From the IMG/VR virus record IMGVR_UViG_3300031565_000009: DNA of 64,000 nt; one strand, 5' to 3'. This stretch comes from a virus. Taxonomy: Duplodnaviria; Heunggongvirae; Uroviricota; Caudoviricetes. Under the pieces are notes generated by a model. The model was not told the origin of the DNA. It saw only the letters and a program-made list of their open reading frames with translations, and made no database searches. The translations under genes and the position numbers were made by a program. Shown one piece after another: positions 1 through 56,104 of the stretch (its first letter is position 1; each line of letters begins with the position of its first letter).

Positions 1-45
1 TCATTAACGGCCTCGATAGTCGCTTGGGCCTCTTCTCTCGTGAAA

Positions 46-252
46 TCACCTTGAGCCATTGGAGCCTCGGGGGTTTGTCTTTTTGCACTCTTCGCAGTAG
101 TGGCAGTCACCATCAACGAGCCAGCCGATGCTCTTCAGGTAGCAGGCGGCATTGCGCTCGTCCCAGCCCTTGCCGGCCGTGGCGGTCAACTGAACGATCT
201 CGACTTGATGGCAACCGTCGCAGGTCGCTTCAACGTAGGCATCGGACAACAT
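46..252 (-). CDS. small Cys-rich (Zn-ribbon-like) protein
   Basis: 68-aa ORF carrying CDGC...CHYCEEC. It lies downstream of promoter-like element 1. An alternative ATG at 323 in another frame gives ~50 aa. Confidence 0.25.
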   Translation of the reverse strand: MLSDAYVEATCDGCHQVEIVQLTATAGKGWDERNAACYLKSIGWLVDGDCHYCEECKKTNPRGSNGSR

Positions 253-343
253 AGAACAACTCGTAGAATCTCTTTTCGCGGGTCGATGTGCGCGTGGCCG
301 TAGTAGGGGTAGTAGTCGCGCATGGTCTCGTGAAACAGCACGC

Positions 344-390
344 CTCTATAAGAGTCGGGGTCAAAAGCACCTGGGTCGGGTCAACTTTTC
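344..390 (-). promoter_or_regulatory. phage promoter-like element copy 1 (TGACCC-N14-TTTTGACCCCGACTCTTATAGAG on minus strand)
   Basis: Plus strand reads ctctataagagtcggggtcaaaa...gggtcaac. Identical core to the copies at 5404, 11357, 14063, 22830 and 60165. Intergenic, downstream of the kinase stop. Confidence 0.55.
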
Positions 391-1043
391 CGCGAAGATT
401 TCGACCGGCGCTTGATATTGTTGGTCTGGATGGGCTCGATGTTGCCCATGCTCACTCCATGCCTCTCCAGTTCCTTTAGTGCTGGCCCCAGATCGTCGGA
501 CACAATATGCGTAAAAGGAACATGCCAGTCGTTCAAACACGTCTCAATGAAACGGTCCATCCCCACCGCCTGAACCAGATTCTCGTAACGGCCACCTTGT
601 TCGTAGGTGTCGGACTGGGCGCGATCCATGAGAAAATTGACAGAGGGGTATTCCTTCTCGAAACGCTTGGCGATCCGCCACAACTCGTTGGCCGCCTTCA
701 TCCGCTTGTGTAAGGCGTACATGCACTGCAAATAGACCGGCGAGTCCGTGACGATAATGTTCACTCCCGCCTGCAAGAGGCGGTCTTCCGTGTGCAACTG
801 CTGAGCGAACGTGTAAACGTAGTCGAACGACTGCATTTGCCTGCCAATGTAAGCCCAGTTCTTCACCCACTCCTGAACAAGTTCCGCCTGGAAACCCTGC
901 TGACGGAGCCAGCCGAACAGCAGGGCGGCCAAGGTGGATTTGCCTACACCAGGTCCACCGTAGATGTTGATCCGCATCATTCTCCCCTCAGTTGTTTCAT
1001 TGTCTGGAGGTAATGCGTTTCGCAGTTGCGGCAATTCCGGCAA
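381..1043 (-). CDS. P-loop NTPase / nucleotide or polynucleotide kinase-like
   Basis: Walker A INIYGGPGVGKSTLAALL resembles the T4 Pnk kinase domain and zeta-toxin/dNK P-loops. The likely true start is MMRINIY near 980; an ATGA overlaps the upstream radical-SAM stop. Confidence 0.5.
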   Translation of the reverse strand: MPELPQLRNALPPDNETTEGRMMRINIYGGPGVGKSTLAALLFGWLRQQGFQAELVQEWVKNWAYIGRQMQSFDYVYTFAQQLHTEDRLLQAGVNIIVTDSPVYLQCMYALHKRMKAANELWRIAKRFEKEYPSVNFLMDRAQSDTYEQGGRYENLVQAVGMDRFIETCLNDWHVPFTHIVSDDLGPALKELERHGVSMGNIEPIQTNNIKRRSKSSRKS

Positions 1044-1819
1044 TAGGCGCTGTCAAGGCTGCTGCACATGGACACCAGCCGATTGCCTGCGTATCGCCCC
1101 ATTACGGCCCGCATGAAACGTGGAGTCGCGCACCAGTAGGAATTGATGTGGCGGACCTTCCACTGGTAGCATTCATCTACCGGCAGCACGGTGGCCGTCT
1201 CGTCCACTTTCGGCTTCTCGGTGTAGTAGGCCATGAAGGTCAGGACTACGGGCACCTGCGCCGCCGTCCAAGCGAGCACTGCTTTGTCGATCAGATGCAA
1301 GTTGGTGCCTGATACCCGCAGACGAACGAACATCAGGTTCGAGGGTGCCCACCAGGACTCCCGATGATACTGTGGGTAATGATACTTCGCGCCGTCTTCC
1401 TCGTGTGGATTGGCCGTCAGAACAACGGGACCCGGGAAGTCGAAACGCGGCACGCTGGTGTTAAAGAAGAATCGCTTATACTGACGGGCTGTCTCGATCA
1501 CCAACTCACGCTGGTTGTTGGAGTCGTTGCCGCAATTCATGCGAACCAGCCCGTCGCCCACTTCCTCCGGGCTTGGAACCAGGGGCATTTGATCCAAGGG
1601 CACGTAGTATGCGCCCGGCCGGTTGAAGAAGCACTGGTTGCAGTCGAACGGGCAGGTGCCAGTTTGCGGAATGCAGTCCCAGAAGTCGGTGCCTTCCTGC
1701 TTGGGGTTTCGTTTCGTGCTCACGACTGATCCTCCGCAATCTGAAGGGCCTCCTCGACCGCCCCGCTTGGCGTATCCCCGTAACCACAGGAGGCATCGGG
1801 GATGATGGGAGCGCCGCAC
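977..1819 (-). CDS. radical SAM enzyme
   Basis: CPFDCNQC is a CxxxCxxC 4Fe-4S/AdoMet cluster motif near the N-terminus. The start is uncertain because it overlaps the upstream gene. Confidence 0.5.
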   Translation of the reverse strand: MRRSHHPRCLLWLRGYAKRGGRGGPSDCGGSVVSTKRNPKQEGTDFWDCIPQTGTCPFDCNQCFFNRPGAYYVPLDQMPLVPSPEEVGDGLVRMNCGNDSNNQRELVIETARQYKRFFFNTSVPRFDFPGPVVLTANPHEEDGAKYHYPQYHRESWWAPSNLMFVRLRVSGTNLHLIDKAVLAWTAAQVPVVLTFMAYYTEKPKVDETATVLPVDECYQWKVRHINSYWCATPRFMRAVMGRYAGNRLVSMCSSLDSAYCRNCRNCETHYLQTMKQLRGE

Positions 1820-2229
1820 TTATTGCAGTTCATGGCACCTTTCGCTAAAGCTGCCATGAAGCAAGGCTCACCGGCCATAGGTGAAAGCACGAAGTCATAG
1901 CCACGCGACACCATCTCGGTGACGCGCTGAAAGAGGCCGGGGTCGTAGATGCCCAGCGGACGAGGCGGGACGGGCTTGTTCTCTCGTGCGTACTGCTGCC
2001 CCTTGTCCGTGATGACGTGGACGATGGCCGTGGTCCCCGTGTCCGTGGGCCGGCGGTTGCCGGTCTTGCGGCAGAGGCCGTTCAATTCCAGGTCGCGGCG
2101 TCGGGTGGGGACATGATTCTTGCTGGCTCCAGTACGGGTAGCCAACTCGGAGTCAGTCAGGCCGTCGTCGCCGGCCTCGTAGAGCAGCTTCAGAAGGATG
2201 TTGCGGATTTTGGGTCGGTCAGCAATCAT
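1720..2229 (-). CDS. winged-helix DNA-binding protein with C-terminal Cys cluster
   Basis: N-terminus LLKLLYEAGDDGLTDSELATRTGASKNHV is an HTH-like segment. The C-terminus carries CNKCGAPIIPDASCGYG. Confidence 0.3.
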   Translation of the reverse strand: MIADRPKIRNILLKLLYEAGDDGLTDSELATRTGASKNHVPTRRRDLELNGLCRKTGNRRPTDTGTTAIVHVITDKGQQYARENKPVPPRPLGIYDPGLFQRVTEMVSRGYDFVLSPMAGEPCFMAALAKGAMNCNKCGAPIIPDASCGYGDTPSGAVEEALQIAEDQS

Positions 2230-2245
2230 GGGTGTTATCTCAGTG

Positions 2246-3157
2246 CTATCTCAAAAGGTGTTGGTTCTCGTTGATGATCTCCGCGATCTCCCGGAGGGCT
2301 CGCAGCGGATCGGCCTCGGTAACGATGCAGCCGGTGAGGCTGCCATAGTGCTCCTCCAGGCAATCGAGGAGAAGCTGCTTGATCTCGTCCTGGCGGGGAC
2401 CCCAGGGAAGGTCGGCCTTCTCATAGAGCCCTTCCAGGAACTTCTCTTTTGCGGCAAAGAAGTCCCTGATCTTCTGTTCGGAGACCTCACCTCGGCGGAT
2501 GGCCTTCAACTCTTCGGCATTGCGCCGCAGGTCCAGGTCGCCCGTGGTGAGAATCTGTTCGATCTCGTACATCAGGCGAACAAGGTGGTAGGCGAACTTC
2601 ACGTCAAAACCATACTGTTCCACCAGGGCGGTCCGCCTGCTGCCCGACTCTGGCGTCCTACCCATTTTCGATAGCTGGCTGTAGGCGTAGCCCTTAAAAC
2701 GGTGCCAGGCCCCCTTGTGCAGGAAGATATGCCGCTTCTCGCGGACCATCTCACCCACCTTCGTGGTGAATAGAACACAGTCGCGCGGCAGGAAGAGGCT
2801 GGCGACCATGTTGGGGTTGTTATCCATCGTGAGATGGAAGTAATGGACCACGTTGTAGATGTTCAGGTCATACTCCCGCCCCTTGCCACCCTGGGCGTCC
2901 TTGTCGAAGACGTGGTGCTTCTGGTAGCAGATGAATCGCTTCTTCTGCCGGCCGAAGCCTTCGATCTCGCCCGCAAGATGCGGGAAGATCATGTCCTTGG
3001 GCGGGATGCACCATCCCACGACATCGAAGTCGCTGGTATCCACGGCCAGGCCGTAGGCATTGGAGCCCTGCACACCCTCGAACTGGATGTTGTCCGGGAG
3101 CCAAGCGGGCGGCGTCAGTAGGCCGCGATCCGTGAGTTGTGAGGTGATGCTCGACAT
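2246..3157 (-). CDS. Pol-beta-superfamily nucleotidyltransferase (PF10127/RlaP-like, from memory)
   Basis: GSNAYGLAVDTSDFDVVG matches the GS...G...SDxD nucleotidyltransferase signature. Its stop abuts the start of the next gene at 3157. Confidence 0.5.
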   Translation of the reverse strand: MSSITSQLTDRGLLTPPAWLPDNIQFEGVQGSNAYGLAVDTSDFDVVGWCIPPKDMIFPHLAGEIEGFGRQKKRFICYQKHHVFDKDAQGGKGREYDLNIYNVVHYFHLTMDNNPNMVASLFLPRDCVLFTTKVGEMVREKRHIFLHKGAWHRFKGYAYSQLSKMGRTPESGSRRTALVEQYGFDVKFAYHLVRLMYEIEQILTTGDLDLRRNAEELKAIRRGEVSEQKIRDFFAAKEKFLEGLYEKADLPWGPRQDEIKQLLLDCLEEHYGSLTGCIVTEADPLRALREIAEIINENQHLLR

Positions 3158-3468
3158 CAGAGGCTCAGCATCTCGGGGAAAGCGGACTCAATGACGTGAG
3201 TTAGGAACTCGTCGCTGGCGGGCACCTCGAACATCCGCTCGGTGTAGCTGGTGTTGTATGTTTGCCAAAAGCCCGCCACCTGGGGTGGTTCTGTCTCGTA
3301 GATCACCAGTTGCTTTGCTGTCGTCTCGCGTGAGAGCACGCATAGCCACATCACGCCATTTTGACAATAGACGACGAACCCGAAGCCTTGGTAAACGGCG
3401 GTAAAGCCTCGGTCCTTCCAGACCCATTGAAGGTTCAGAGTGGCGAGCCGTGATTCAAGGGTGGTCAT
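3157..3468 (-). CDS. hypothetical protein
   Basis: 103-aa ORF tightly packed inside the ligase operon. Confidence 0.3.
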   Translation of the reverse strand: MTTLESRLATLNLQWVWKDRGFTAVYQGFGFVVYCQNGVMWLCVLSRETTAKQLVIYETEPPQVAGFWQTYNTSYTERMFEVPASDEFLTHVIESAFPEMLSL

Positions 3469-3485
3469 TGTTGTACTCCGGTAGT

Positions 3486-4001
3486 TTAGAACTCGTAGTC
3501 AAGTTGCTTGATGATCGCTGTGAACTTCTCGCGGACACGTTCCTTCCGGCGATGGTCATAGAACTCGCGGTAGTGCCGACCGTTTCGGAAGTGGCCAACA
3601 TTGCGGTGTGGCAGCGACGTGTGCGGCAGCCCGGCATCCTTGAGGAAGGCGGCCCAGTCGGCGTCCAGGTTCTCGAAGTGCAGGACGTGGGTTGCATACG
3701 GCAGGCCGAAGAAGAGCCCCTGCTGCACCAGGCGGTTAGTGTTGGTTATCCAGCCGTCAAACCATGTCTCGAATAGCGGGAACTTCGGTATTACGCTGTG
3801 GTAGTGGAAATACCAACTGACGACGGTATCCCACGGATTGCGAACAGTGGCCCCGATAATGCGCAGGCCAGTCAACCAGGGCTCGCGAATTTCGTGATGG
3901 TTGCCGCACTCCTCAAAGCCCAGTTCCATCAGACAGGCGGCGGCCGACTGGCTGCCCGTCTTCGGGTGAGCGATGAAGCCTATGTCATTGAGGAGGTACA
4001 T
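3486..4001 (-). CDS. sulfotransferase-like protein
   Basis: HPKTGSQS resembles the 5'-PSB motif PKSGTT. VRNPWDTVVSWYFHY resembles the 3'-PB motif RDPxDxxxSxY. Confidence 0.45.
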   Translation of the reverse strand: MYLLNDIGFIAHPKTGSQSAAACLMELGFEECGNHHEIREPWLTGLRIIGATVRNPWDTVVSWYFHYHSVIPKFPLFETWFDGWITNTNRLVQQGLFFGLPYATHVLHFENLDADWAAFLKDAGLPHTSLPHRNVGHFRNGRHYREFYDHRRKERVREKFTAIIKQLDYEF

Positions 4002-4046
4002 GGCGGCTCTTCAATGAGTGCAAAGCAGGAATGGTTGATCGACTCT

Positions 4047-4253
4047 TCACAGACAGCGTTTTCGGTCCCAGCCTGAGAAAACAATGCCCAAGGTTCCGAA
4101 GAACCAGGCGGTGGCGAACACAACGAGGCTTATAGCAGTGGGTATCAACCCACCACGAACACAGCCATCAGTAATGATGCCAACGCACGCCAGTCCCATG
4201 ATGAAGGTCAAAATGAACCAGGCTCTAAGCCCACACGGACAATTGGACTTCAC
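4047..4253 (-). CDS. small membrane protein (2 TM)
   Basis: 68 aa and hydrophobic. Its start overlaps the ligase stop (4250/4253). Confidence 0.3.
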   Translation of the reverse strand: MKSNCPCGLRAWFILTFIMGLACVGIITDGCVRGGLIPTAISLVVFATAWFFGTLGIVFSGWDRKRCL

Positions 4254-5377
4254 TCCATGCCCCTCCGTCGCCAGAATCTTGCTTCCTTCGGGATGCCGTC
4301 GTCGCTTAACTCGCGATACTTGAACGTCACGGTCTGGCCAACCTTAAACTGTTTCCCCTGGAAGCCTGTGGGCATATCTTCACCCGGGTGGAAGGTGGCG
4401 TGAGCCGACATCCATCCTTCGGCAAATTCTCGTTCGGCATCAGTGAGCCCGGACAGTTCGAGCCGCTTGCCCTGATAGTTGGTGATGAGCGCCCCGATCT
4501 TCCCCAAAAGCCGGCTGCCTTTGTTGGTCTTACGGCCGGAGGTGAAGCCCGTCACGGTCGCCTCGGCGTCACTGAAAGGCTTGTACTTCAAGAGCCCGCG
4601 ATGCCGCTTGGGTGTCCAGAGCGTCTTCGGGCCGCGAATCACGACACCCTCGCCGCCCTGGTCCAGCACCTTTTCCAGATAGGCTTCCACCTGATTGGCG
4701 GCCTCGACTGGCATGTCGATCAGCCTGGTCTGCGGGTGCATGTAGCACCGTGAGTCAGGATCGCAGTTATCCAGGGCCGTCTGCATGAATCGCAACTCGT
4801 CAGCGAAGACGGACCCAGGCGGCAGGTAGTGGAAGTCGCCTCGCTGCTTCCAGTCACGGCCAAAAACTTCAAGCCGTTGCCGGACCCAGTGCTCGATGGT
4901 GATGTAGTCGATGGGGACCACCATGTTGGCGTTCTTGATCTGCCCCGTCTGAAACACGGAAGCCAGCGGCGGGCTGGAATAGACGGCGAACGTGATCTGG
5001 TCAAAGCGGGGATCGGGCGTATCCCCGGCGCAAATCGAGCGGCAAAGCTGGAAGTTTCCGCGTCCGGCCCATAACTCACCGTCCAACGGACAAGCGGGAA
5101 GCTGGTTCAGGAACCACTCGGGGGCCATGATCGGGTTGCCGTAGCGGCTCCAGAGGCCCGTGGCGACCGGCTTGATCTTGGCTTTCCGCTTCCCAGTCTT
5201 CGGGTCGATGGTATTTGCATAGGGCACCCGCTCGGTCAGGAGGCCACGGGAAAGTCCGCCATCCCAAAAGCAGCGCGTGCCATCCAGCTTCTCTGAGATC
5301 AACCAGCCGGCTACGTCGCTCTTTTCCGGCTTGTAGTGGTTGGCCAGTTGCAGTAGTTCGCGTTTGGTGCTTGACAT
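4250..5377 (-). CDS. ATP-dependent DNA (or RNA) ligase
   Basis: Motif I is EKLDGTRC (KxDGxR). The size fits an adenylation domain plus OB domain. Promoter-like element 2 lies ~25 nt upstream of its ATG. Confidence 0.75.
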   Translation of the reverse strand: MSSTKRELLQLANHYKPEKSDVAGWLISEKLDGTRCFWDGGLSRGLLTERVPYANTIDPKTGKRKAKIKPVATGLWSRYGNPIMAPEWFLNQLPACPLDGELWAGRGNFQLCRSICAGDTPDPRFDQITFAVYSSPPLASVFQTGQIKNANMVVPIDYITIEHWVRQRLEVFGRDWKQRGDFHYLPPGSVFADELRFMQTALDNCDPDSRCYMHPQTRLIDMPVEAANQVEAYLEKVLDQGGEGVVIRGPKTLWTPKRHRGLLKYKPFSDAEATVTGFTSGRKTNKGSRLLGKIGALITNYQGKRLELSGLTDAEREFAEGWMSAHATFHPGEDMPTGFQGKQFKVGQTVTFKYRELSDDGIPKEARFWRRRGME

Positions 5378-5403
5378 GCCAGGGCTCCGGGGTGTAGATC
5401 GCT

Positions 5404-5450
5404 CTCTATAAGAGTCGGGGTCAAAACGGCTCCTGGTGGCTCACAGATTT
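5404..5450 (-). promoter_or_regulatory. phage promoter-like element copy 2
   Basis: Plus strand reads ctctataagagtcggggtcaaaacggctcctggtggctcaca. It lies between the HAD nucleotidase stop and the ligase start. Confidence 0.6.
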
Positions 5451-6013
5451 TTCAATCCCGTTAGATGTAGGAGACCGGCCGACAAATAAGGGCGTGGCTC
5501 TTGACCCCAGGCAGCATTCCAGGGCCTTGGGAATCGCAGAACCTCCCCACCCGCTGCCTCAAACTTGCGGCAGTTTTTCTCGTTGTCGTCGATTAGAAGA
5601 GCGCCACGCTGGGCTAGCTTCCACTTCCGGGGCGTGATGAAGAATTGTCGGTGTATCCACTTAGGCAGATGGACATGAATCCACTCCAGCTTGCCAGCCA
5701 GACAGTCAGGGTCCTTCGTGGGACTGGTAGCAATGTAGATTTCACGACCAACAGCGCGTTTACACGCCTTCAGCAGCCAACAACATTCGGCGGACCTGGG
5801 TGTTTCCGCCCAGACCTGCCGTGAGATTGCCTGCCAGAAGGTAGTGCGCGTGTACTTTCGACCTAGCATCCGGTTTGCTGCCAGCACGATGTCCAGCCTG
5901 CCCGGGTAAGTGCTGTAGTCATCCGCCGCAATGGGAGCACCGAGATGTTGGAGGATGTACGGTGCGAGCGTATTGAGAACATCATCAAGATCGAGATAGA
6001 TAGTGTGAATCAT
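5441..6013 (-). CDS. HAD-family 5'(3')-deoxyribonucleotidase-like phosphatase
   Basis: N-terminal IYLDLDDVL is the DxDx(V/T) HAD motif I of the NT5C type. The Pnkp 3'-phosphatase domain is also HAD-type. Confidence 0.5.
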   Translation of the reverse strand: MIHTIYLDLDDVLNTLAPYILQHLGAPIAADDYSTYPGRLDIVLAANRMLGRKYTRTTFWQAISRQVWAETPRSAECCWLLKACKRAVGREIYIATSPTKDPDCLAGKLEWIHVHLPKWIHRQFFITPRKWKLAQRGALLIDDNEKNCRKFEAAGGEVLRFPRPWNAAWGQEPRPYLSAGLLHLTGLKNL

Positions 6014-6642
6014 CGAAGTTGACTCAGTTTCCTTTCCACTTGTTTCTGGAGTCGTTTAGAGAGGCGGTAAACACTGCGGAGAGAAATCCCCGTCTCGCAG
6101 GCGATCTCTTCGTTGCTGTATCCTTCTTTGCGCATTTCCACAAAACGCCTCTCTCGGTCATCCTTGCAACAGGACATCAGCAAGTCTTCAGCGTCGATCC
6201 AGTCGATTTCCTGGTTGCTTCTGCCAAGTTCAGCAAGTGCCTCCTGCTGCGGCAATTTGCGGTCGGTTCCACGGGTGCGGTAGTGGGTGAAACGCGAGTA
6301 GTAGACCATCACCTCGGAGTCAACTACTTGTCCGAAAGCGTTGTTGATGGCAGCTATCAAGTAGCCTGAAGGCTTCTCGATGGTTGAATCGCGACACAGG
6401 GCTTCAACAGCCTCGATAAGGCAGAGGAAGCCTTGACCAACAAGATCGTTACGTAGATAGGACAGCCTCGGGGTATTGCGAAGGAAGCATTCAACCTTCG
6501 ACAGTACGAGAGGCATGTTGCTTTCGATCAAAGTCCGCTTGGCTGCTTCATCGCCCAAGCAGGCTCGTTGATGTAAATAAGTGTTGGTATCAATGTCTGA
6601 TGGTTCAGTCATTTGCGATACAAGAAGACTGTTGTAGGCCAC
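6010..6642 (-). CDS. sigma-70 family (ECF/FliA-like) sigma factor
   Basis: DLVGQGFLCLIEAVEAL resembles region 2.2. SNEEIACETGISLRSVYRLSKR resembles the region-4 HTH. Confidence 0.5.
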   Translation of the reverse strand: MAYNSLLVSQMTEPSDIDTNTYLHQRACLGDEAAKRTLIESNMPLVLSKVECFLRNTPRLSYLRNDLVGQGFLCLIEAVEALCRDSTIEKPSGYLIAAINNAFGQVVDSEVMVYYSRFTHYRTRGTDRKLPQQEALAELGRSNQEIDWIDAEDLLMSCCKDDRERRFVEMRKEGYSNEEIACETGISLRSVYRLSKRLQKQVERKLSQLR

Positions 6643-6651
6643 GTTGCCCTC

Positions 6652-7185
6652 CTAGTAGATGCGGTCAACGCGCCAGGCGCATTGTGGGAAGAAACTCTGC
6701 TCCTCGCAGGCTTCCAAACCGAAGGCATACTCGTAGCCGTTGGGATCATAGAGGAAGCCGTGATCGTAGGCGGCGGCATGGCCAACCATGCCGGTCATGG
6801 GCACACCACGGAGGCCGGTAACAACGCCACGACTTAGAAGAATCACGTCGCCGAAGGCACACTGGTTGTCGTCGCTCTCGGTTGTAACCACATAGTTCTC
6901 ATAGCCCGGCCTGGGTGGCGCGATCTGCGGGAACATCTCGCAGGGTGTGACAGCGTAGCCATAGTTCAAAGCGAGGCGAATCACCTCTTGGATATGCACG
7001 CCGCGCCAACACAGAGGTTCCGGGAGGCCGGGGAAAATCACGTCATGCCAACCTCTGAGTTGGGACAGGAGGCTTTCCACAGGCATGTCGAGAGCCATTG
7101 CGAATGAGGTTGGCAGGCAGAGACCTTGGGCTGGCATTACTTGCAATTGCATCAGCGCATACTCCCAGCGCAGTTGAAGTTTCAT
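6652..7185 (-). CDS. putative papain-like cysteine peptidase
   Basis: QGLCLPTSFAMAL supplies a candidate catalytic Cys. MVGHAAAYDHGFLYDPNG supplies a candidate His and Asp/Asn. Confidence 0.3.
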   Translation of the reverse strand: MKLQLRWEYALMQLQVMPAQGLCLPTSFAMALDMPVESLLSQLRGWHDVIFPGLPEPLCWRGVHIQEVIRLALNYGYAVTPCEMFPQIAPPRPGYENYVVTTESDDNQCAFGDVILLSRGVVTGLRGVPMTGMVGHAAAYDHGFLYDPNGYEYAFGLEACEEQSFFPQCAWRVDRIY

Positions 7186-7197
7186 GGACGGGGTGAG

Positions 7198-7656
7198 CTA
7201 TTGCTGTGCGCGATGCTCGCGCACTAGCTCGTCGATTAGCGCGTCAACGTCAGGTAATTCGCCCCAGGAGGGTTTCCAGTATTGCCGCCAGTTGGGCGGG
7301 GCGAACAACTTGTTGTATTCCTCTTGTGTGGCGGCGGTGAGAATCCAGATACAGACGCCCTTCTGCTCCCACTCGGGCCACTTCCGCTTTTGCTGCTTCG
7401 TGAACGAGTAGCGCTTTGGCTGCTTTACGTCGATCCAGCGATAGCTCCACTTCGGGTGATGGCAGTAAAGGTCAGGGATGCCCATCTGATAGGCGTTGCC
7501 AATCATCCGTTCAACAAGCCACCCACGAGCCTTCAGATACTCCACCACGTCTTGCTGGATGTACCATTCCGGCCCGTGCTTGGGCCGGCGGATTTTGCTC
7601 ATGGCATCTTCCAGGCCAGCCGCTTTGTGAGCCGGCGGAACATGCCTTGGTGCCAT
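7198..7656 (-). CDS. VRR-NUC domain nuclease
   Basis: VVEYLKARGWLVERMIGNAYQMGIPDLYC carries the GxPDL and K motifs of VRR-NUC. Confidence 0.55.
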   Translation of the reverse strand: MAPRHVPPAHKAAGLEDAMSKIRRPKHGPEWYIQQDVVEYLKARGWLVERMIGNAYQMGIPDLYCHHPKWSYRWIDVKQPKRYSFTKQQKRKWPEWEQKGVCIWILTAATQEEYNKLFAPPNWRQYWKPSWGELPDVDALIDELVREHRAQQ

Positions 7657-7897
7657 TCCCAGATGCGGAAGGCGTCACAGCGGTGCTGGCACTGGAGCCG
7701 AGCCAGCGTGCTGGCGACATAGGAACGCGCAACCTTGGCCGCCGAGGCGGCATCGTTGCCGATCACAGGCCGGCAGACGAGGCCCAAAAGCCACCACGGC
7801 CTGGTGATACACCAGTTGTACTTCGGGTAGTAGTTCCCAATATGCTCCCAGGAGCCGTCCGCGCATCGGGCCTCAATCTCATAGTGGTTGATGTAGC

Positions 7898-10402
7898 TCA
7901 TACCGGTGCCCTTATCTTCACTGTTCGTGAGCCGCCCTTCTTCTCAGCCCAATTGTCTTGTGCTTCATTCCATGTGAGGCCAATCAAAGGCACCTTTGAA
8001 CGAAAGGACTCAACAGCTATACCAACCGCCTCTGTAACCTTCTCCACGTAATCCGGGTGAGTCGCCACCATCAATTCATCGTGTACGTTGAAGGGGCCAA
8101 CATAGAGTGGGTGAACACCCACCGGCTGCAAGTCCCAGATCGCCCGTTGCACGCTCTTCGTGATCTGGGCACCCGGGCTCTGGATTTCATGGTTCGCGGC
8201 AGCCCGCATGTTGGCCGCCTGCATGGCGAAGGCTGCTCCATAGAGGGCCGACTGCGATGCGCCGCCGGCTGTCTGGACGCGATCACGCCGGACCACCTTG
8301 ATCTTCACGTCCTTCCAGTGCTTGGGCGGCTTGTTGGCCAAGTCGTAGAGGGCTTTGCAGATACGGTTTTCCAAAGTGAAATAGCGACGAAAGCCAAGGA
8401 AGGATTCCACGTAATTGGCCGGGTCCACCCAGACAACCTGTGTGCCGATACCCCCGGGCTGTCGCATTGAGCAGAATGCCTCAAACACCCGCCCTCGCCA
8501 CTTCTTGACACCCTTGTATCGCTTGCCGAAGGCGTCAATGGCATCACGAGCATCCTGTTCCCTGACGCCCAGCTTATTCATCAGCGTCGTGTGATCGCCG
8601 CCATAGAGGATGGCACCAAAGAAGCCTTGCTTGCCCTTCGTGTATAGATCATTCTCCATACCGGCTGTTGCCTTGATCTCCTCATAGGTGTAACCAGGAA
8701 AGAGGGCCATGCCAAAAAGAGCATGAATCTTCTTTCCTTGCTGCAACTCAGCACGCAAGGCGTCATCGTCGCACACGGCATCGGCAATCGTCACCTCGAA
8801 AGCATCGAAGTCGCCGCCACAGAGGGTGTAATTGTCCCAGGCCAGCGGAAACTGCTTGCGAACTTCCTTCGTGGCCTTAATACCCTGGGCGTTGAGGCCA
8901 TCTGACCCGCTCATGCGGGAGGAGAGCGCACCAATCACATTGAAGCTGGCATGAAACTTGCCAGCCAAAAGCAGCTTCTTATACAGTTCCACTTCCTTGG
9001 CAGCCGTCTTCACGTTGAGAATCTGCTTGCTTCGCACGGCCGCCGGATGTTTGCCCACAGGTACATCCCCCTCACCGTGACAGCGGGCACACTGCGGGTC
9101 CGACCCCTCGCAACGGGTGCAGGGTTCAGGCTCTCCGACGAGGCCCAGCCCGCCGCACTCCGGGCAGGGCGACGGCTTAATGTCGCTGCCCTCGGGTGGC
9201 GGGTCCAGAGTCACAACACTCTTGCCCTTGCAGACTGGGCACTGCTCACCGATCTCCCACTTGACAATGGCTTCGAGGTTGGTCTTCCTCGTGCTTTCTT
9301 CAAGGATCACCGCCTCGGTGTCATCACAGGCAGCCGTGATGTAGGCCCGCACCTCACTCGGCTTATTGATGTTGACCGGGCTGGCATCTACCCTAGCCTG
9401 AGCCTCGGCCAGCAGACCGTTCATACCAGCATGATTGATCTTGAAGCCGCGCCAGCGGATGCTGGCGACCATACAGGTGAGGATTGAGTCATCATCGCCG
9501 TGGGGCGGATCGCCGAAGTGATGATCGAGTGCCCGGGTGTAGACAATATCGTCGTTGGCGTACTCGCGGGCGTTCTCATGTGTGCGCCAGTGTTCAACGA
9601 ACCTGTGGATCACGCCGGGCCAGGCGTAACCTTTGACTCGCACCTCGCCTTTAGGAGTTTTGCCCCAGATGGCCCAATCCTTCTCCGGCGTGGAGATGGC
9701 CAGGGCGGTAGGGGCGTAGCCCAACTCAATAGGTCGCCAATCCGTAGGTGGTTCCACATCCTTGTAGTGAAACTTGGGCTTCAACTTCAGAACATGCTCA
9801 GCCAAAAACTTCAAGCCGCCGGCCGGGTTGAACCGAAGCACCACGTCCTTGAAATCCGGGTCGATGTCGCCATAGCGGTCATGGCGGTCAAAGACCTGCC
9901 ACTTGGGAGCCTCTGGATCGCTGGACTTGGCAAAGTAGATGTTGTCCAGTTCGATCCGTTTTTCCAACTCGGCCGCCAGAGCATAAGCTAGTGCGATGGG
10001 CACCCGCTTGATGCGGACATCATTGCGGCTCATAAGCGATTGCATCGGACCCTTGCGGCTGTGCATCAGCAAGTCAAGGGCGCTGTACGGCTTGACGCAG
10101 GGGCCATTTTGCGCGGCCGGCTCCAGCATAGCGATCTCGTTGACGTGCTCGATGGGTAGCCACTCGGGATCGCAGAGCCGGAGAATGGTGTAGAGTTTCG
10201 TGATATGGAACCAATCGAACGAGAGGTTGAAGCCCACAACGATATTCTCACAGAACCACTCGATCAGAACCAATGTCTCTCGCACTGTCTGATGCCACAC
10301 CTCATACAAATGAATGGGTCCATCTTCTAGCGCGTATTGCAGGAGAACCGGCATCCCATGCAGCCCACACGTCTCAGAATCAAGGTAGACTTTTCTAGGC
10401 AT
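7898..10402 (-). CDS. family A DNA polymerase with 3'-5' exonuclease
   Basis: YLDSETCGL is the Exo I motif. DFDAFEVTIA matches motif A and NVHDELMV matches motif C. An insertion carries four CxxC pairs. The likely start is MPRKVYLDSE at 10402; the ORF track extends to 10570. Confidence 0.7.
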   Translation of the reverse strand: MPRKVYLDSETCGLHGMPVLLQYALEDGPIHLYEVWHQTVRETLVLIEWFCENIVVGFNLSFDWFHITKLYTILRLCDPEWLPIEHVNEIAMLEPAAQNGPCVKPYSALDLLMHSRKGPMQSLMSRNDVRIKRVPIALAYALAAELEKRIELDNIYFAKSSDPEAPKWQVFDRHDRYGDIDPDFKDVVLRFNPAGGLKFLAEHVLKLKPKFHYKDVEPPTDWRPIELGYAPTALAISTPEKDWAIWGKTPKGEVRVKGYAWPGVIHRFVEHWRTHENAREYANDDIVYTRALDHHFGDPPHGDDDSILTCMVASIRWRGFKINHAGMNGLLAEAQARVDASPVNINKPSEVRAYITAACDDTEAVILEESTRKTNLEAIVKWEIGEQCPVCKGKSVVTLDPPPEGSDIKPSPCPECGGLGLVGEPEPCTRCEGSDPQCARCHGEGDVPVGKHPAAVRSKQILNVKTAAKEVELYKKLLLAGKFHASFNVIGALSSRMSGSDGLNAQGIKATKEVRKQFPLAWDNYTLCGGDFDAFEVTIADAVCDDDALRAELQQGKKIHALFGMALFPGYTYEEIKATAGMENDLYTKGKQGFFGAILYGGDHTTLMNKLGVREQDARDAIDAFGKRYKGVKKWRGRVFEAFCSMRQPGGIGTQVVWVDPANYVESFLGFRRYFTLENRICKALYDLANKPPKHWKDVKIKVVRRDRVQTAGGASQSALYGAAFAMQAANMRAAANHEIQSPGAQITKSVQRAIWDLQPVGVHPLYVGPFNVHDELMVATHPDYVEKVTEAVGIAVESFRSKVPLIGLTWNEAQDNWAEKKGGSRTVKIRAPV

Positions 10403-10913
10403 GATAAAGCTGGTCGTCGTACTCACCAATGAACCGCAGGATTTCCCGCTCGTCTTGAACGACCCGCCGGGCATTTTCCGCGCCGCTGGCATCAACTTCG
10501 GCACAACACTCGCACAGCACCTCCAGGGCAATGGCGTAAGTCTTCCAGTGGTCTCTCGCGTAGGTAGCAAACATCAAGGCGACCGTTGAAGCGGCCGTCT
10601 GGTTGACAAGCTGCGAAGCCAGGACATCCCAACTTTCCGAAACTTTCTCTGCTTGCGTACAAAGATTGACAAGCTGCGGAGCCAGGACATCCCAACTTTC
10701 CGTAACTTTCTCTGCTTGCATACAAAGATTGCAGGCCGCCTCCTGAAGAGACAGATTGGCCTCCTGACAAATGGTCAACTCCATCTGGCAAGAAGCCAAA
10801 GCCATTCGATATTGCTCAATCTCGCGCCGTTTGCGTGCAAACAGGAGGAGGAAGTAGATGCCGCACAAAGTCACAAGTGTGCAGGCGCAGATTGTGAGCA
10901 CAGTTGTCATCAT
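10395..10913 (-). CDS. coiled-coil protein with 21-aa tandem repeat and N-terminal TM
   Basis: CTQAEKVSESWDVLASQLVN is repeated. It is encoded by a 63-bp tandem duplication. Confidence 0.35.
   Translation of the reverse strand: MMTTVLTICACTLVTLCGIYFLLLFARKRREIEQYRMALASCQMELTICQEANLSLQEAACNLCMQAEKVTESWDVLAPQLVNLCTQAEKVSESWDVLASQLVNQTAASTVALMFATYARDHWKTYAIALEVLCECCAEVDASGAENARRVVQDEREILRFIGEYDDQLYHA
10605..10730. repeat. 63-bp tandem duplication (2 copies)
   Basis: gacaagctgcg(a/g)agccaggacatcccaactttccg(a/t)aactttctctgcttgc(g/a)tacaaagatt occurs twice in succession. Confidence 0.8.
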
Positions 10914-11356: not shown

Positions 11357-11402
11357 CCTCTACAAGAGTCGGGGTCAATTTGCCGCTGGGTGGGTCACTT
11401 TC
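11357..11402 (-). promoter_or_regulatory. phage promoter-like element copy 3 (variant CTCTTGTAGAG)
   Basis: Plus strand reads ctctacaagagtcggggtcaatttgccgctgggtgggtcac. Confidence 0.5.
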
Positions 11403-12208: not shown

Positions 12209-12467
12209 GGATCAGCTTGCCGAAATCAGCAAGGAAGCTGCCGGCGCAGCCACAGGCGAACAGCACGAACAGGTTGACACTGACCAGAACCAGACCCAGC
12301 GCCACGCCGCACCAGAAGCCGCAACACTGATAGCACTCAAACAGGCCATGATGCAGCTTCGCGGGCAGTCGATTCTTGGCCCACTCGTCCACGGAGTCCA
12401 TGATCTCAGAGTCCACCATGATATGAGTCATGCCGACGACACCGAGAATAAAGAGGATCAGATTCAT
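12174..12467 (-). CDS. small membrane protein
   Basis: Hydrophobic ORF. The likely start is MNLILFILGVV, abutting the metallophosphoesterase stop. Confidence 0.25.
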   Translation of the reverse strand: MNLILFILGVVGMTHIMVDSEIMDSVDEWAKNRLPAKLHHGLFECYQCCGFWCGVALGLVLVSVNLFVLFACGCAGSFLADFGKLILDRLEGLHGTS

Positions 12468-13462
12468 ATCGGTAGCCTCGTCATATTGGAAACCGCACAG
12501 CCATTGATCCAATCGAAGACCCCAACCGCCCCCTGAGCGGGCTCGATGCAAAAAAAGCTGTTGACTCGCTCGGCCCAGGTGCCTGTGTTGTAAAGCCGGA
12601 GACCGACATGCCCCGCACGATGCGTGTGACCTGAGACAATGAAGTAGCCGGGATAAAGAGATGCGAGCCGGCGATTCATGGTTTTGAAGCGATCCGCCCG
12701 ACCCAGAAGTCGATAGACGACACTCAACACCCGCTCCATGCGGCCCACAACAGCCTCTTCAACCATTTGGTACTTATTGACCCACGGCGAGCCGTTTCGG
12801 TCTTCCCAGATGCCCGAATAGATGGCCGAGATGCGGCCCTTGCCCGGCGTGTCGCTGGCACAGTACGGGTCGGCTTGGTGGCCGTGGATGAACTTGAATC
12901 TCTGACCGCCGATGATCTCCTCGTGCTCCATCACCATCCGGTCGAAGAAGGTGTGGCGGAACATAGTGCTGTTGCAGAAATAAAGCAGGTCGGCGTCATG
13001 GTTGCCCAAGACATAGCGGACTCCCATTTCGGCCAGCCGGTCCAGGAGCCAAAGGTGCTTCATAATCACCTTGCTCACGTTGGCCTGCCAAAACTCGAAC
13101 AGGTCGCCCAAGATAATCAGGCGGCCCTTCTGCTCCTCCACGTAGTCGAGAAAGGCCAGAAATTGTTTCATCTTGTCGCCGACCGCAAAGTTGTCTCGCG
13201 GCCCGCCATCGCCAAGATGCAGGTCGCTCACGCAGTAGATCGGGCACCGGCTCCCTCGCGGCTCGGTCCATTTCTTCTCTGGCTTCGTGGCGAAGGTGGC
13301 TGCCTGCGGGCACGAGAGATGATCTATCATGACACTAAGGTCTCCAGGATGACGATCGAAATCAAACCATTCGCAGCACGCCACACGAAGCGAGCGCTTT
13401 ACAACATCAAGGTCTGTGTCTTCGGGCATGGCTTTGAGAAGCATGGTAACTTGCAGGTCCAT
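12464..13462 (-). CDS. calcineurin-like metallophosphoesterase
   Basis: Motifs VSDLHLGDGG, LGDLFEFW, GNHD and GHTH. Confidence 0.65.
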   Translation of the reverse strand: MDLQVTMLLKAMPEDTDLDVVKRSLRVACCEWFDFDRHPGDLSVMIDHLSCPQAATFATKPEKKWTEPRGSRCPIYCVSDLHLGDGGPRDNFAVGDKMKQFLAFLDYVEEQKGRLIILGDLFEFWQANVSKVIMKHLWLLDRLAEMGVRYVLGNHDADLLYFCNSTMFRHTFFDRMVMEHEEIIGGQRFKFIHGHQADPYCASDTPGKGRISAIYSGIWEDRNGSPWVNKYQMVEEAVVGRMERVLSVVYRLLGRADRFKTMNRRLASLYPGYFIVSGHTHRAGHVGLRLYNTGTWAERVNSFFCIEPAQGAVGVFDWINGCAVSNMTRLPI

Positions 13463-13481
13463 GAGGGTACTCGCAGAGAAG

Positions 13482-13554
13482 AGCCGGCGATCGGACTTGA
13501 ACCGACAACCGGCTGATTACAAATCAGCAGCCCTGCCAATTGGGCTACGCCGGC
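13482..13554 (-). tRNA. tRNA-Thr(UGU)
   Basis: Folds canonically by hand: acceptor GCCGGCG/CGCCGGC, D-arm GCCC-AATTGGCA-GGGC, anticodon loop TTTGTAA, T-arm GTCGG-TTCAAGT-CCGAT. Confidence 0.75.
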
Positions 13555-13558
13555 AAGA

Positions 13559-13632
13559 GTTGCGGGGCGGGGATCGAACCCGCGACCTTCAGATTATAGG
13601 CCTGACAAGCTACCGACTGCTCCACCCCGCAA
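13559..13632 (-). tRNA. tRNA-like, noncanonical (possible anticodon UAU, or a pseudo-tRNA)
   Basis: Canonical T-arm GCGGG-TTCGATC-CCCGC and D-arm GAGC-AGTCGGTA-GCTT. One extra nucleotide between the acceptor and D stems. Anticodon loop CCUAUAA has C at position 33. Confidence 0.4.
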
Positions 13633-13633
13633 G

Positions 13634-13705
13634 CTGTAGCGGCAGGACTCGAACCTGCAACCATCGGATTAACAGTCCGGTGCGCTACCGTTGCGCCACG
13701 CTACA
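13634..13705 (-). tRNA. tRNA-Asn(GUU)
   Basis: Acceptor TGTAGCG/CGCTACA, D-arm GCGC-AACGGTA-GCGC, anticodon loop CTGTTAA, T-arm GCAGG-TTCGAGT-CCTGC. Confidence 0.7.
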
Positions 13706-13721
13706 GTGACTTCCGTGTGTG

Positions 13722-14033
<312 letters not shown>

Positions 14034-14062: not shown

Positions 14063-14110
14063 CTCTACAGTAGTCGGGGTCAAAACCGTCCCAGCCGGCT
14101 CACGAATTTT
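14063..14110 (-). promoter_or_regulatory. phage promoter-like element copy 4 (variant CTACTGTAGAG)
   Basis: Plus strand reads ctctacagtagtcggggtcaaaaccgtcccagccggctcacg. Confidence 0.5.
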
Positions 14111-18560: not shown

Positions 18561-19634
18561 TCAGGTGGTATGAAGAACACGGAAGGGGCGCACGATCTCC
18601 CCCATGTCGCTTTCAGCCGGAATCTGCGCAGGCAGTGGGATGCCGATACTGGGACTCGGCCCTTCGATGCGGGGCTCTTCATCGCCCGGCTCTTCGGGCA
18701 CTACGATAGGCTCTTCATCGCCCGGCTCTTCGGGCACTACGATAGGCTCTTCATCGCCCGGCTCTTCGGGCACTACGATAGGCTCTTCATCGCCCGGCTC
18801 TTCGGGCACTACGATAGGCTCTTCATCGCCTGGACCAATGGAGATGATGATCTGCATCGGGTTTTGGTAGTCCGTCGCCGTGCCATCATCCACAGGCAGT
18901 TTGGCTCGCGCTTCCTCATTCGGCATGGAAACACTTAGGTCCAAAGCCCACAAGACGCCCATCTTCTTAGCCCAAGGGATAATCCGTCGCATGGGAATGA
19001 TGAAGTTCAGTCCAGGACCAACGCCACGGGTCAACAGACCGATGCACTCATGTGTCTCGTCGAGGTAGACACCGCCGCCGGATGATCCGGGATAGCCCAT
19101 GCAGCTTGTCTGGTCGAAGACCTTGCCCATAATGTCCCGTTCGGTCTGTGACAGAACGCCAAAACTCAGCGAATCATAGAGGCCCATAGTGCAGCCGACG
19201 TGAACCAGCTTCACGCCGATTTCAGGGATTTCGTCCTTCAAGTAGAACTTCGCCGAACGAATGACAGGTGCCCAATTGTCCTGCAAAATCTCCAACAGCG
19301 CCAGGTCTTCGCCGCTGTCCGGGGCGCTGTAGGCAATCACCTTGGCCTCAATCCGGCCGGAGCCAATCAGGCGGCCTTTGTCGCGATACTCGAAATAGAT
19401 GATCGAATTGTCGAACTTGCCGTCGTGACGAAGCGATTCGACAACATGCCCGGCCGTCCAGACAAAGGTGCGGGTCCGCTCGCCGTCGGCGCGTGTCACC
19501 AGCACACCGGTGCCACAGCCACGGCCGATCTCCACGCGCACACTCACACTCAGCAGATCATCGTACTTGCCCGCAAGGGCGTCCGACGCCAGTACCAACA
19601 CGGCAACTAGCGAGAAAATCAGTGCTCGAATCAC
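18561..19634 (-). CDS. secreted trypsin-like (S1) serine protease with C-terminal acidic Pro-rich repeats
   Basis: Signal peptide MIRALIFSLVAVLVLASDALA. TAGHVV supplies His and GYPGSSGGGVY the Ser motif. PGDEEPIVVPEE is repeated five times. Confidence 0.55.
   Translation of the reverse strand: MIRALIFSLVAVLVLASDALAGKYDDLLSVSVRVEIGRGCGTGVLVTRADGERTRTFVWTAGHVVESLRHDGKFDNSIIYFEYRDKGRLIGSGRIEAKVIAYSAPDSGEDLALLEILQDNWAPVIRSAKFYLKDEIPEIGVKLVHVGCTMGLYDSLSFGVLSQTERDIMGKVFDQTSCMGYPGSSGGGVYLDETHECIGLLTRGVGPGLNFIIPMRRIIPWAKKMGVLWALDLSVSMPNEEARAKLPVDDGTATDYQNPMQIIISIGPGDEEPIVVPEEPGDEEPIVVPEEPGDEEPIVVPEEPGDEEPIVVPEEPGDEEPRIEGPSPSIGIPLPAQIPAESDMGEIVRPFRVLHTT
18675..18840. repeat. 36-bp tandem repeat, ~4.6 copies
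   Basis: ctcttcatcgcccggctcttcgggcactacgatagg iterated. It encodes the PGDEEPIVVPEE repeat. Confidence 0.85.
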
Positions 19635-22829: not shown

Positions 22830-22878
22830 CTCTATAAGAGTCGGGGTCAAAAATGCCCTGGAAGGGTCACACTTTTTC
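22830..22878 (-). promoter_or_regulatory. phage promoter-like element copy 5
   Basis: Plus strand reads ctctataagagtcggggtcaaaaatgccctggaagggtcaca. A GC hairpin in the 5' leader follows, at 22788-22822. Confidence 0.55.
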
Positions 22879-55591: not shown

Positions 55592-55615
55592 GGTTCATGT
55601 CGGTTTTCAGGATCA

Positions 55616-56104
55616 CTAGCCCTTGGGGTACTTGCGGCGCATCGGATACTTCGGCTTCACGGCGGGCTCCGGCTTCACGGCGGGCTCCAGTTCCACGGTG
55701 GGCTCCGGCTCGGCGGCGGGCTCCGGCTCGGCGGCGGGCTCCGGCTCGGCGGCGGGCTCCGGCTCGGCGGCGGGCTCCGGCTCGGCGGCGGGCTCCGGCT
55801 CGGCGGCGGGCTCCGGCTCGGCGGTGGGCTCCGGCTCGGCGGCGGGCTCCGGCTCGCGGATCACAATCGGCTGCATGTGTGGGTCCACCTGTCCGCTACA
55901 AAAGCAGAACTCGGCATACACCCCGCAGTGCCGTTCCTCGACACCCTCGGGAAGCCTCACGTTGTACTGCCGAAGGGTGTCATCGCAAGTTACGTTGACA
56001 GGCCCCTTGGGCGTTTCCACCGTGAGTCGGACAAGGGGATGATTGCTACTTTGGGGAACCGGCACTAGCATGGATTCGTTCCTCTCGTATTTGAATGATC
56101 TCAC
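55616..56104 (-). CDS. Pro/Glu repeat protein upstream of TerL (possible TerS-position protein)
   Basis: (PEPAAE)n run of ~13 units. Confidence 0.35.
   Translation of the reverse strand: MRSFKYERNESMLVPVPQSSNHPLVRLTVETPKGPVNVTCDDTLRQYNVRLPEGVEERHCGVYAEFCFCSGQVDPHMQPIVIREPEPAAEPEPTAEPEPAAEPEPAAEPEPAAEPEPAAEPEPAAEPEPAAEPEPTVELEPAVKPEPAVKPKYPMRRKYPKG
55660..55860. repeat. 18-bp tandem repeat, ~10 copies
   Basis: gcgggctccggctcggcg iterated. Confidence 0.85.

Follow-up and report, generated by a model that had tools for sequence, protein, structure and literature searches.

Minimal ATP-dependent DNA ligases include a described Lig E/viral cluster (PMC8455567), and RlaP nucleotidyltransferases, among them T4 NrdC.11 (PMC12776372; PMC7824862), add one or two nucleoside monophosphates (NMPs) to the 3'-OH of RNA, an activity shown for Pseudomonas enzymes and directed, in the sole biochemical study, at RNA and not at DNA (PMC12776372). 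Both kinds of enzyme are predicted from a 64,000-nt stretch of an uncultivated tailed phage (IMG/VR record IMGVR_UViG_3300031565_000009; this whole stretch is the window hereafter), in a minus-strand segment at positions 381-6013 that a first-pass annotation had read as one tightly coupled nucleic-acid repair or modification module. As in the T4 system of Pnkp with Rnl1/Rnl2, the phage combines its own tRNAs with a P-loop kinase, a HAD phosphatase, a KxDG ligase, and an end-modifying nucleotidyltransferase, but here the ligase is a predicted DNA ligase, the phosphatase is a putative NT5C encoded in another unit, the kinase lacks specific similarity to Pnk, and the real RNA ligase of the lineage, an OB domain plus PF09414, is truncated. 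Comparison with related phages makes it quite probable that this block, delimited by promoter-like elements, combines replication backbone genes and accessory cargo as a mosaic and is not one pathway. The segment would lie in the arm of the phage genome devoted to early/middle DNA replication and nucleotide metabolism.

Recomputation of starts and stops placed nine co-directional minus-strand open reading frames (ORFs) across 381-6013, which reproduced both the gene coordinates and every enzyme motif position of the first-pass annotation; most of its family assignments held as well. Loci for comparison were gathered through the radical-SAM-fold protein (44 IMG/VR loci), the sulfotransferase-fold protein, and RlaP, yielding ~50 related phage contigs overall, and the window proteins were scored by tblastn; presence counts cover 7 kb on either side of the radical-SAM-fold gene in the 44 loci. 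About 31 of these 44 share a backbone in the order PolA, g152, g177, sigma factor, NT5C, DNA ligase, a slot, and the radical-SAM-fold gene, followed by the AAA_28 kinase and RNA ligase where present, and then by g163, DeoC, an Ndt-like gene, and a DUF2061 gene. The ligase (31/44), sigma factor (30/44), DeoC (29/44), and NT5C (24/44) were scored most often, RNA ligase and the AAA_28 kinase occur in 16 and 10 loci, respectively, RlaP in three, and g103 in a single one, while the sulfotransferase-fold, winged helix-turn-helix (wHTH)-like, and 68-aa (TM68) genes were found in none. This neighborhood comparison splits an apparent eight-enzyme module into backbone and cargo.

The slot between ligase and radical-SAM-fold gene measures 120-3848 bp across 34 loci, and its 88 ORFs group into 40 clusters, with DNA methyltransferases as the two commonest (12 and 8 loci). 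Indeed, in many relatives the radical-SAM-fold gene directly follows DNA methyltransferases, and in one (L005) it stands directly after the ligase. The cargo of this slot here would consist of the possible membrane ORF, the sulfotransferase-fold protein, g103, RlaP, and the wHTH-like protein, in place of which relatives carry DNA methyltransferases or nothing. Co-occurrence of the gene set in related phages is hence contradicted by the counts given above for RlaP, g103, the sulfotransferase-fold and wHTH-like genes, and the membrane ORF. Together with the assignment of the ligase as a predicted plain DNA ligase, this makes the single-module reading fail on the two grounds that the first-pass annotation had itself named as speaking against it, and we regard that reading as not supported.

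The ligase gene (4250-5377, minus strand) encodes a 375-aa protein that family models and PDB matches place among minimal ATP-dependent DNA ligases of the Lig E/viral type. Motif I reads KLDGTR (aa 30-35); PHROG 114 is matched at 6e-32 and PF14743 (OB_2) above threshold (38.6 bits, cut-off 28), while PF01068 stays below its cut-off (21.9 vs 26.2 bits), as does NCBIfam PRK09125 (3.2e-50; 170.7 bits, equivalog cut-off 200). The best PDB matches are the Lig E structures 4d05, 8u6x, and 6gdr (1.5e-21 to 1e-16), followed by the Chlorella virus ligase. Like bacterial Lig E and the T7 and Chlorella-virus type enzymes, the protein shows a KxDGxR motif I and a nucleotidyltransferase domain followed by OB_2, and, as for minimal phage ligases, its gene sits by the phage DNA polymerase; unlike Lig E, it is ~90 residues longer and its PRK09125 match is broken into four stretches. 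There is no obvious N-terminal leader peptide, the motif I lysine being residue 30. Orthologues with 55-71% identity were detected by tblastn in 31 of the 44 loci and in L005-L011. None of the nine proteins of the segment matched an RNA-ligase model (PF09414 and relatives) in Pfam, PHROGs, or NCBIfam. The KxDGxR motif and the ligase identity proposed earlier are therefore retained, whereas the RNA-sealing role is not, since every family model and PDB match is a DNA ligase. On these similarities we classify the protein not as an RNA ligase but as a predicted plain ATP-dependent DNA ligase of the minimal type, and its gene as a putative backbone replication gene in the DNA polymerase A neighborhood of related phages; to judge from family and position, it would seal nicks in replicating phage DNA.

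Just upstream of the block, a 190-aa HAD-family protein (5441-6013, minus strand) with the nucleophile motif DLDDV (aa 8-12) matches Pfam NT5C (PF06941; 33.7 bits, cut-off 24.8) and PHROG 2643, 5'-3' deoxyribonucleotidase (2.4e-11). These Pfam and PHROG searches matched it to NT5C deoxyribonucleotidase only and not to a HAD-type polynucleotide 3'-phosphatase. Its gene lies upstream of the promoter-like element described below and overlaps by 4 nt (6010-6013) the phage-encoded sigma factor gene (6010-6642, minus strand), and it therefore belongs to the preceding, sigma-factor unit. NT5C recurs in 24 of the 44 related loci regardless of the presence of RNA ligase. Thus, the DxDxV HAD phosphatase of the first-pass annotation is real, but its part as an end-healing partner falls, as it is a predicted NT5C, lies in another unit, and does not track RNA-repair genes. 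This 5'(3')-deoxyribonucleotidase of the preceding transcription unit would, by family, dephosphorylate deoxynucleoside monophosphates (dNMPs) in the nucleotide pool.

The eight genes from ligase to kinase are bracketed by two copies of a 23-nt promoter-like element with the core TTTTGACCCCGACTCTTATAGAG, both on the minus strand. One, at 5404-5443 (core 5404-5426), lies upstream of the ligase; the other, at 344-383 (core 344-366), ends the ligase-to-kinase unit and opens the next, and at both sites the stop codon of the gene upstream marks the start of the element, that gene being NT5C at 5404-5443. A repeat search uncovered further copies at 11358-11397, 14063-14102, and 22830-22869 (minus strand) and at 60192-60214 (plus strand), so that the window holds six copies at up to three mismatches vs none in 100 shuffles, which bears out the promoter element as a genuine repeat bracketing the block. 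The 23-nt element is part of a 40-55 nt repeat family (D5/D6), and every copy is intergenic or located at a gene end, in the orientation of the genes downstream of it. No copy was found in any related phage locus, which makes the element specific to this phage, and a generic scan for sigma-70 promoters and terminators gave matches no commoner than in shuffled sequence. One phage-specific promoter would drive all eight co-directional genes.

Down this unit, the junctions measure -4, +45, +17, -1, +16, -4, and -4 nt. The stop/start overlaps noted earlier at 4253/4250, 3157, and 980/977 were confirmed on recomputation, and a fourth was found at 1723/1720. Four of seven junctions thus overlap, vs 21 of 37 (57%) called-gene junctions in the same arm of the public contig L001, an 87.6-kb metagenomic contig of the same phage. 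Overlapping junctions are the genome-wide norm and no special property of this block: the overlaps stand, and tight coupling as a distinguishing feature does not.

The backbone gene that follows the slot (977-1723, minus strand) encodes a 248-aa protein. Translation begins with the GTG at 1723 rather than at 1819, and the product is identical to the database protein P0001. It carries a CX3CX2C motif, CPFDCNQC (aa 24-31), and C24, C28, and C31, together with five C-terminal cysteines, are invariant in an alignment of 42 homologues. The structural model contains a partial TIM-barrel radical-SAM core, with NifB, spore photoproduct lyase, QueE, viperin, and the pyruvate formate-lyase-activating enzyme as the closest folds; Foldseek against viral structures returned weak radical-SAM matches (best 4.4e-3). 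Two non-canonical invariant motifs, G65-x-D67-S68 after strand 2 and N88-T89-S90 on the third longer strand (84-89), are placed where the SAM-binding (GGE-like and ribose) motifs would be expected. By sequence, no match emerged in Pfam (PF04055 included) or NCBIfam at E <= 0.1, in PHROGs at E <= 0.01, or in 50,697 phage records, and PDB sequences gave only spurious L28 matches with phmmer and nothing with the family profile. As in the radical-SAM superfamily, the CX3CX2C motif comes directly after the first strand; at variance with it, the usual aromatic residue before the third cysteine is Gln, an extra invariant CX7CX2CX2C cluster occupies the C-terminus, and sequence matches to PF04055, NCBIfam, PHROGs, and PDB chains are lacking. 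On motif and modeled fold, and without any sequence-model match, we accept the radical-SAM assignment of this protein, as a putative divergent member of the superfamily. It would act as a self-contained Fe-S enzyme of the backbone.

A word-indexed search collected at least 1178 proteins of this radical-SAM-fold family. The family is closed: a search of 1.84 billion representatives gave 226 clusters at 50% identity and nothing that linked them to other families. Identity among the best 120 homologues is 60-76%. Ten of these 120 carry a winged-helix-like N-terminal extension of ~95 aa. The idea that the separate wHTH-like gene corresponds to this fused extension, as a Rosetta-stone link, was rejected, as the two show no similarity (E 0.77). 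Nine of ten longer family members tested are devoid of an informative fused domain, and the tenth carries an intein: one member, homologue P0271, is split near residue 52, immediately past the Fe-S motif, by an intein with an HNH homing endonuclease. Essential replication genes often carry inteins. In distant phages, the radical-SAM-fold gene shares no conserved neighbor with any other locus. Position and conservation suggest a nucleic-acid-related role for the protein. That it founds a group of nucleic-acid-directed radical enzymes, for DNA repair or for DNA or RNA modification, is a tentative and rather unlikely proposal, made because it is a backbone gene in a large clade of Planctomycetota phages, lies always in the replication arm after DNA ligase and often after DNA methyltransferases, and has winged-helix-like fusions and one intein-invaded member.

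Among the accessory genes, the one at 3486-4001 (minus strand) encodes a minimal sulfotransferase-fold protein of 171 aa, with a 5'-phosphosulfate-binding (5'-PSB) motif, PKTGS (aa 13-17), and a 3'-phosphate-binding (3'-PB) motif, RNPWDTVVS (aa 54-62). The family comprises 28 homologues, and H12, P13, T15, S17, R54, D58, V61, S62, and W63 are invariant in 27 aligned sequences. Its AlphaFold2 model has a predicted local distance difference test (pLDDT) value of 94.7, and all of the top 50 Foldseek matches in the PDB are sulfotransferases (best E 1.2e-3, probability 1.0, template modeling score 0.62); the family profile finds SULT4A1 over the 3'-PB motif at 2.3e-4. Curated models are not reached at threshold: Sulfotransfer_2 scores 14.5 bits, below its cut-off of 22, and PHROG 3347 gives 0.0028. 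The sulfotransferase-like assignment is accordingly upheld by invariant motifs and fold, below the score demanded by the curated model. With sulfotransferases dependent on 3'-phosphoadenosine 5'-phosphosulfate (PAPS; cytosolic SULTs, Sulfotransfer_2-type), the protein shares both motifs, the fold, and profile-level similarity over the 3'-PB region; it differs in its length (171 aa vs ~250-300), with most of the acceptor-binding part missing, in its scores below Pfam thresholds, and in its occurrence in phage replication arms, to which the family is confined. In three relatives, the homologue comes directly after PolA, away from RlaP and the radical-SAM-fold gene. We know of no sulfation chemistry in phage replication arms. 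Sulfation of a nucleotide or nucleic-acid hydroxyl by this protein could be added to the radical-enzyme proposal above, as its weaker part.

Two further cargo genes are less informative. The wHTH-like protein with a Cys-rich C-terminus (169 aa; 1720-2229, minus strand) has weak matches to HTH_24 (0.056), B-block_TFIIIC (7e-4), and PHROG 1123 (3.4e-7), and no relatives in viral contigs or in the 44 loci. A possible two-helix membrane ORF of 68 aa (4047-4253, minus strand), whose GTG start overlaps the ligase stop, is of uncertain status as a gene: it was not called by a public gene caller, and it has neither a family match nor a homologue in related loci.

The remaining accessory genes touch on RNA repair. 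The 303-aa nucleotidyltransferase of the Pol-beta type (2246-3157, minus strand) scores well above the gathering threshold of Pfam RlaP (PF10127; 52.4 bits, cut-off 23), matches PHROG 388 at 2.7e-41, and contains the catalytic signature GS...DxSDxD (GSNAYGLAVDTSDFD, aa 31-45), which corroborates its recognition as RlaP. The family is large, with 3709 homologues and matches in 472 cultured-phage records, and a 61%-identical RlaP stands alone among housekeeping genes on a contig whose cluster is named Gemmataceae by one source. The protein shares with the RlaP family, T4 NrdC.11 included, the Pfam and PHROG membership, the GS...DxD signature, the phage setting, and the presence of an RNA ligase in related phages; it departs from RNA-ligase-associated RlaP in that the neighboring RNA ligase has lost its catalytic domain and that unrelated genes separate RlaP from the kinase and the ligase remnant. 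RlaP and RNA ligase occur together in L035/L036 and in L012, an unrelated phage with the kinase 4 kb and the RNA ligase 7 kb away from RlaP. In L035/L036, where RlaP occupies the same slot as here, an HD-domain protein, by eye of the (p)ppGpp-hydrolase type, is encoded between RlaP and the radical-SAM-fold gene (5805-6365). Next to RlaP here, g103 (3157-3468, minus strand), a 103-aa protein whose stop codon shares 1 nt with the RlaP start, has no family match in Pfam, PHROGs, or NCBIfam; its sole homologue found, in L037, immediately precedes the AAA_28 kinase and the RNA ligase of that locus.

The last gene of the block (381-980, minus strand) overlaps the radical-SAM-fold gene by ATGA and encodes a 199-aa nucleoside/nucleotide-kinase-like protein of the P-loop AAA_28 type. 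Its Walker A motif is GGPGVGKS (aa 8-15), and it matches Pfam AAA_28 (48.3 bits, cut-off 27) and PHROG 2107 (5.5e-12), labeled "thymidylate kinase" in PHROGs. Neither the single sequence nor a 14-member profile found a polynucleotide kinase in the PDB, the matches stopping at the P-loop of adenosine 5'-phosphosulfate, thymidylate, and deoxyguanosine kinases. The "Pnk-like P-loop kinase" of the first-pass annotation is thus a P-loop kinase, with nothing specifically Pnk-like in these searches. In cultured phages, homologues are encoded amid genes of nucleotide metabolism (S-CBWM1) or beside Nampt (Mx1), and the protein may be a polynucleotide, dNMP, or nicotinamide-riboside kinase. In relatives, RNA ligase is present in nine of the ten loci with the kinase vs 7 of 34 without it (one-sided Fisher P = 1.3e-4, or 2e-3 after removal of duplicate loci, uncorrected for phylogeny), and in L036, L038, and L041 the kinase directly follows the radical-SAM-fold gene.

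The RNA ligase of these relatives, ~366 aa long with an N-terminal PHA02142 OB domain and PF09414, is encoded just downstream of the AAA_28 kinase. The homologue in this phage is a truncated 147-aa protein (L001:11938-12381, minus strand, ~0.7 kb beyond window position 1), identified by tblastn, in which residues 1 to ~133 are joined in frame to the last few residues. Gone is the entire nucleotidyltransferase domain, including the TEKIHGxN lysine motif, while the OB domain carries a tRNA-binding-type motif, HPNADRL. An independent sample (L002) contains the truncated gene as well, and with RNA ligases of three relatives as tblastn queries this gene was the sole match, outside the window. RlaP, we infer, is part of a loosely clustered kit for RNA end repair, to which the kinase and g103 may also belong. 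In such a kit, RlaP would, by analogy with its family, extend cut RNA at its 3'-OH by one or two nucleotides, and the kinase might phosphorylate RNA 5' ends, as its co-occurrence with RNA ligase in relatives would suggest. Because the RNA ligase retains only its N-terminal OB domain and no catalytic domain, sealing would depend on an enzyme of the host, or the kit is in decay; alternatively, the OB domain may have taken on a new role.

Such a kit is the reduced form in which the idea of RNA repair survives. The complete version is a split, T4-like healing and sealing of tRNA, in which the kinase would act on 5'-OH ends and the HAD protein on 3' or 2',3'-cyclic phosphates, RlaP would refill the ends, and the KxDG ligase would join them. 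RlaP is an RNA-repair-associated enzyme (PMC12776372), the kinase tracks RNA ligase in relatives, the phage has three tRNAs, and g103 adjoins RlaP here and the kinase and RNA ligase in L037, all of which fits this scheme. However, the ligase looks like a DNA ligase in every model and structure match and, in relatives, is found alongside a distinct, true RNA ligase, so it is no replacement of the latter; the putative NT5C belongs to another transcription unit and occurs with or without RNA ligase; the kinase profile finds no PDB polynucleotide kinase, its homologues in cultured phages having nucleotide-metabolism or NAD-salvage contexts; and the phage's own RNA ligase is without a catalytic domain. 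What remains of the repair proposal is RlaP and the kinase-RNA ligase association, whereas a unified kinase/HAD/ligase system, undone by the DNA ligase, the NT5C, and the truncated RNA ligase, is very unlikely. A smaller module centered on the radical-SAM-fold protein, in which the wHTH-like protein would target nucleic acid, the kinase prepare or process the substrate, and the rest be unrelated cargo, draws on the 4-nt overlaps at the wHTH/radical-SAM and radical-SAM/kinase junctions, on the fused winged-helix-like extension of some homologues, and on the three relatives in which the kinase directly follows the radical-SAM-fold gene. We consider it unlikely, given that related loci lack a homologue of the wHTH-like gene, that its product has no detectable similarity to that extension, that the kinase, in 10 of 44 loci, tracks RNA ligase rather than the radical-SAM-fold gene, and that distant radical-SAM-fold loci have no common neighbor.

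Nucleobase or DNA hypermodification, with radical-SAM enzyme, sulfotransferase, nucleotidyltransferase, and kinase successively activating and decorating a base, would account for the position of the radical-SAM-fold gene in the replication arm, directly after DNA methyltransferases in many relatives, and for its translational coupling to the kinase gene here and their adjacency in several relatives. Known thymidine hypermodification clusters likewise combine a P-loop DNA kinase with a radical-SAM enzyme. This analogy was rejected, as there is no hydroxymethylase or pyrophosphorylase gene: Pfam scans of the nine proteins, the sigma factor, and 40 further ORFs, with short ORFs covered in part, detected no pyrimidine hydroxymethylase, aGPT-Pplase, or DpdA/QueC/QueD/FolE, and the same 40 window ORFs, a subset of all, include no glycosyltransferase, aminotransferase, or DpdA/queuosine-type enzyme. 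Moreover, the four genes do not co-occur in relatives, the radical-SAM-fold protein is without a sequence match in the 50,697 phage records searched, which probably include phages with known hypermodification, and in the sole biochemical study RlaP acts on RNA, not DNA (PMC12776372). The literature search on DNA modification by phage radical-SAM enzymes or sulfotransferases found nothing relevant. With its genes scattered among relatives and its defining enzymes absent from the ORFs scanned, the pathway put forward in the first-pass annotation has no evidence behind it and is highly improbable.

Several observations also weigh against a mosaic of backbone and cargo. Co-transcription from one promoter and four overlapping junctions would fit some functional linkage, and a subset of the genes does repeat, in the order ligase, RlaP, radical-SAM-fold gene, kinase, RNA ligase, in L035/L036. 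The winged-helix-like extension in 10 of 120 radical-SAM-fold homologues loosely echoes the separate wHTH-like gene. In addition, absence from relatives refers to the 7 kb on either side of the radical-SAM-fold gene, and with 28 homologues the sulfotransferase-fold family is small, which renders its co-occurrence statistics weak. The mosaic nevertheless remains the reading that we favor.

The surroundings of the segment are those of a tailed phage. Pfam scans of the window identified a gpA-type terminase, a tape-measure protein, DNA polymerase A, two ParB-like proteins, SNF2 and DUF5906 replication proteins, a DNA methylase, and a separate dNMP kinase; megablast of positions 1-8000 against the 50,697 phage records gave no match, and PADLOC defense-system models no meaningful one. 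The dNMP kinase is a canonical, T4 gp1-like one (PF21448; 27978-28667, plus strand), so that the AAA_28 kinase is not the sole nucleotide kinase of the phage. Beyond window position 1, L001 encodes a zinc-ribbon ORF, a 60-aa ORF, the 147-aa PHA02142 OB-domain protein described above, and a 163-aa protein, and then a DeoC aldolase, a weakly Ndt-like protein with an HNH insertion, and a DUF2061 protein. The DeoC and Ndt-like genes (L001:12856-14561) are kept as a pair in ~30 related phages; the N-terminus of the Ndt-like protein weakly resembles nucleoside 2-deoxyribosyltransferase or dNMP N-hydrolase, and its insertion is an HNH endonuclease. Together with NT5C, the pair may constitute a route of deoxynucleotide breakdown or salvage.

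A tRNA scan recovered the phage tRNAs proposed earlier, namely Thr(TGT), Ile(TAT), and Asn(GTT) at 13481-13705; a genomically encoded TAT anticodon is unusual for an Ile tRNA. Adjoining this cluster is a calcineurin-like phosphoesterase (Metallophos) gene (12464-13462, minus strand), whose product may be an Mre11/SbcD-type nuclease or an RNA-end phosphoesterase; L005 has a gene annotated as Metallophos just upstream of ParB. Between the tRNA cluster and a promoter-element copy, positions 13708-14028 hold an array of ~12-nt units (spacing 9-15 nt, at least 18 copies in register) that may represent iterons or an origin-like region or, alternatively, repetitive coding sequence. The DNA polymerase A gene (7898-10354, an 890-aa ORF) contains an internal DnaJ-type CXXCXGXG zinc-finger segment (~aa 442-490), an insertion unusual for family-A polymerases, and two tandem 63-nt copies, 95% identical, occupy the intergenic region upstream of it (10603-10728). 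Other repeats comprise a 300-nt direct repeat with 91% identity (44544-44843/45609-45908) that links two neighboring tail-region genes, a 36-nt tandem repeat (18637-18852) inside a trypsin-like protease gene, and an 18-nt tandem repeat (55613-55892) just upstream of the terminase gene.

All five cellular-genome matches to the radical-SAM-fold protein fall in Planctomycetota metagenome-assembled genomes, and because of these, together with the 61%-identical RlaP in a Gemmataceae-named cluster, the host is probably a planctomycete. The locus adds gene content for the poorly known Planctomycetota phages. As a system, the block is ordinary, and its residual interest lies in the radical-SAM-fold family, the miniature sulfotransferase, and the decapitated RNA ligase. 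The first, with at least 1178 proteins and no curated model, is a concrete target for enzymology; the second represents a rare 171-aa family in phage replication arms; and the third, an RNA ligase cut down to a tRNA-binding-type OB domain where RlaP and the kinase are kept, is a possible natural experiment in RNA repair. Collectively, these data make the locus a cautionary case: in a phage, close packing, shared transcription, and suggestive enzymes do not make a pathway.

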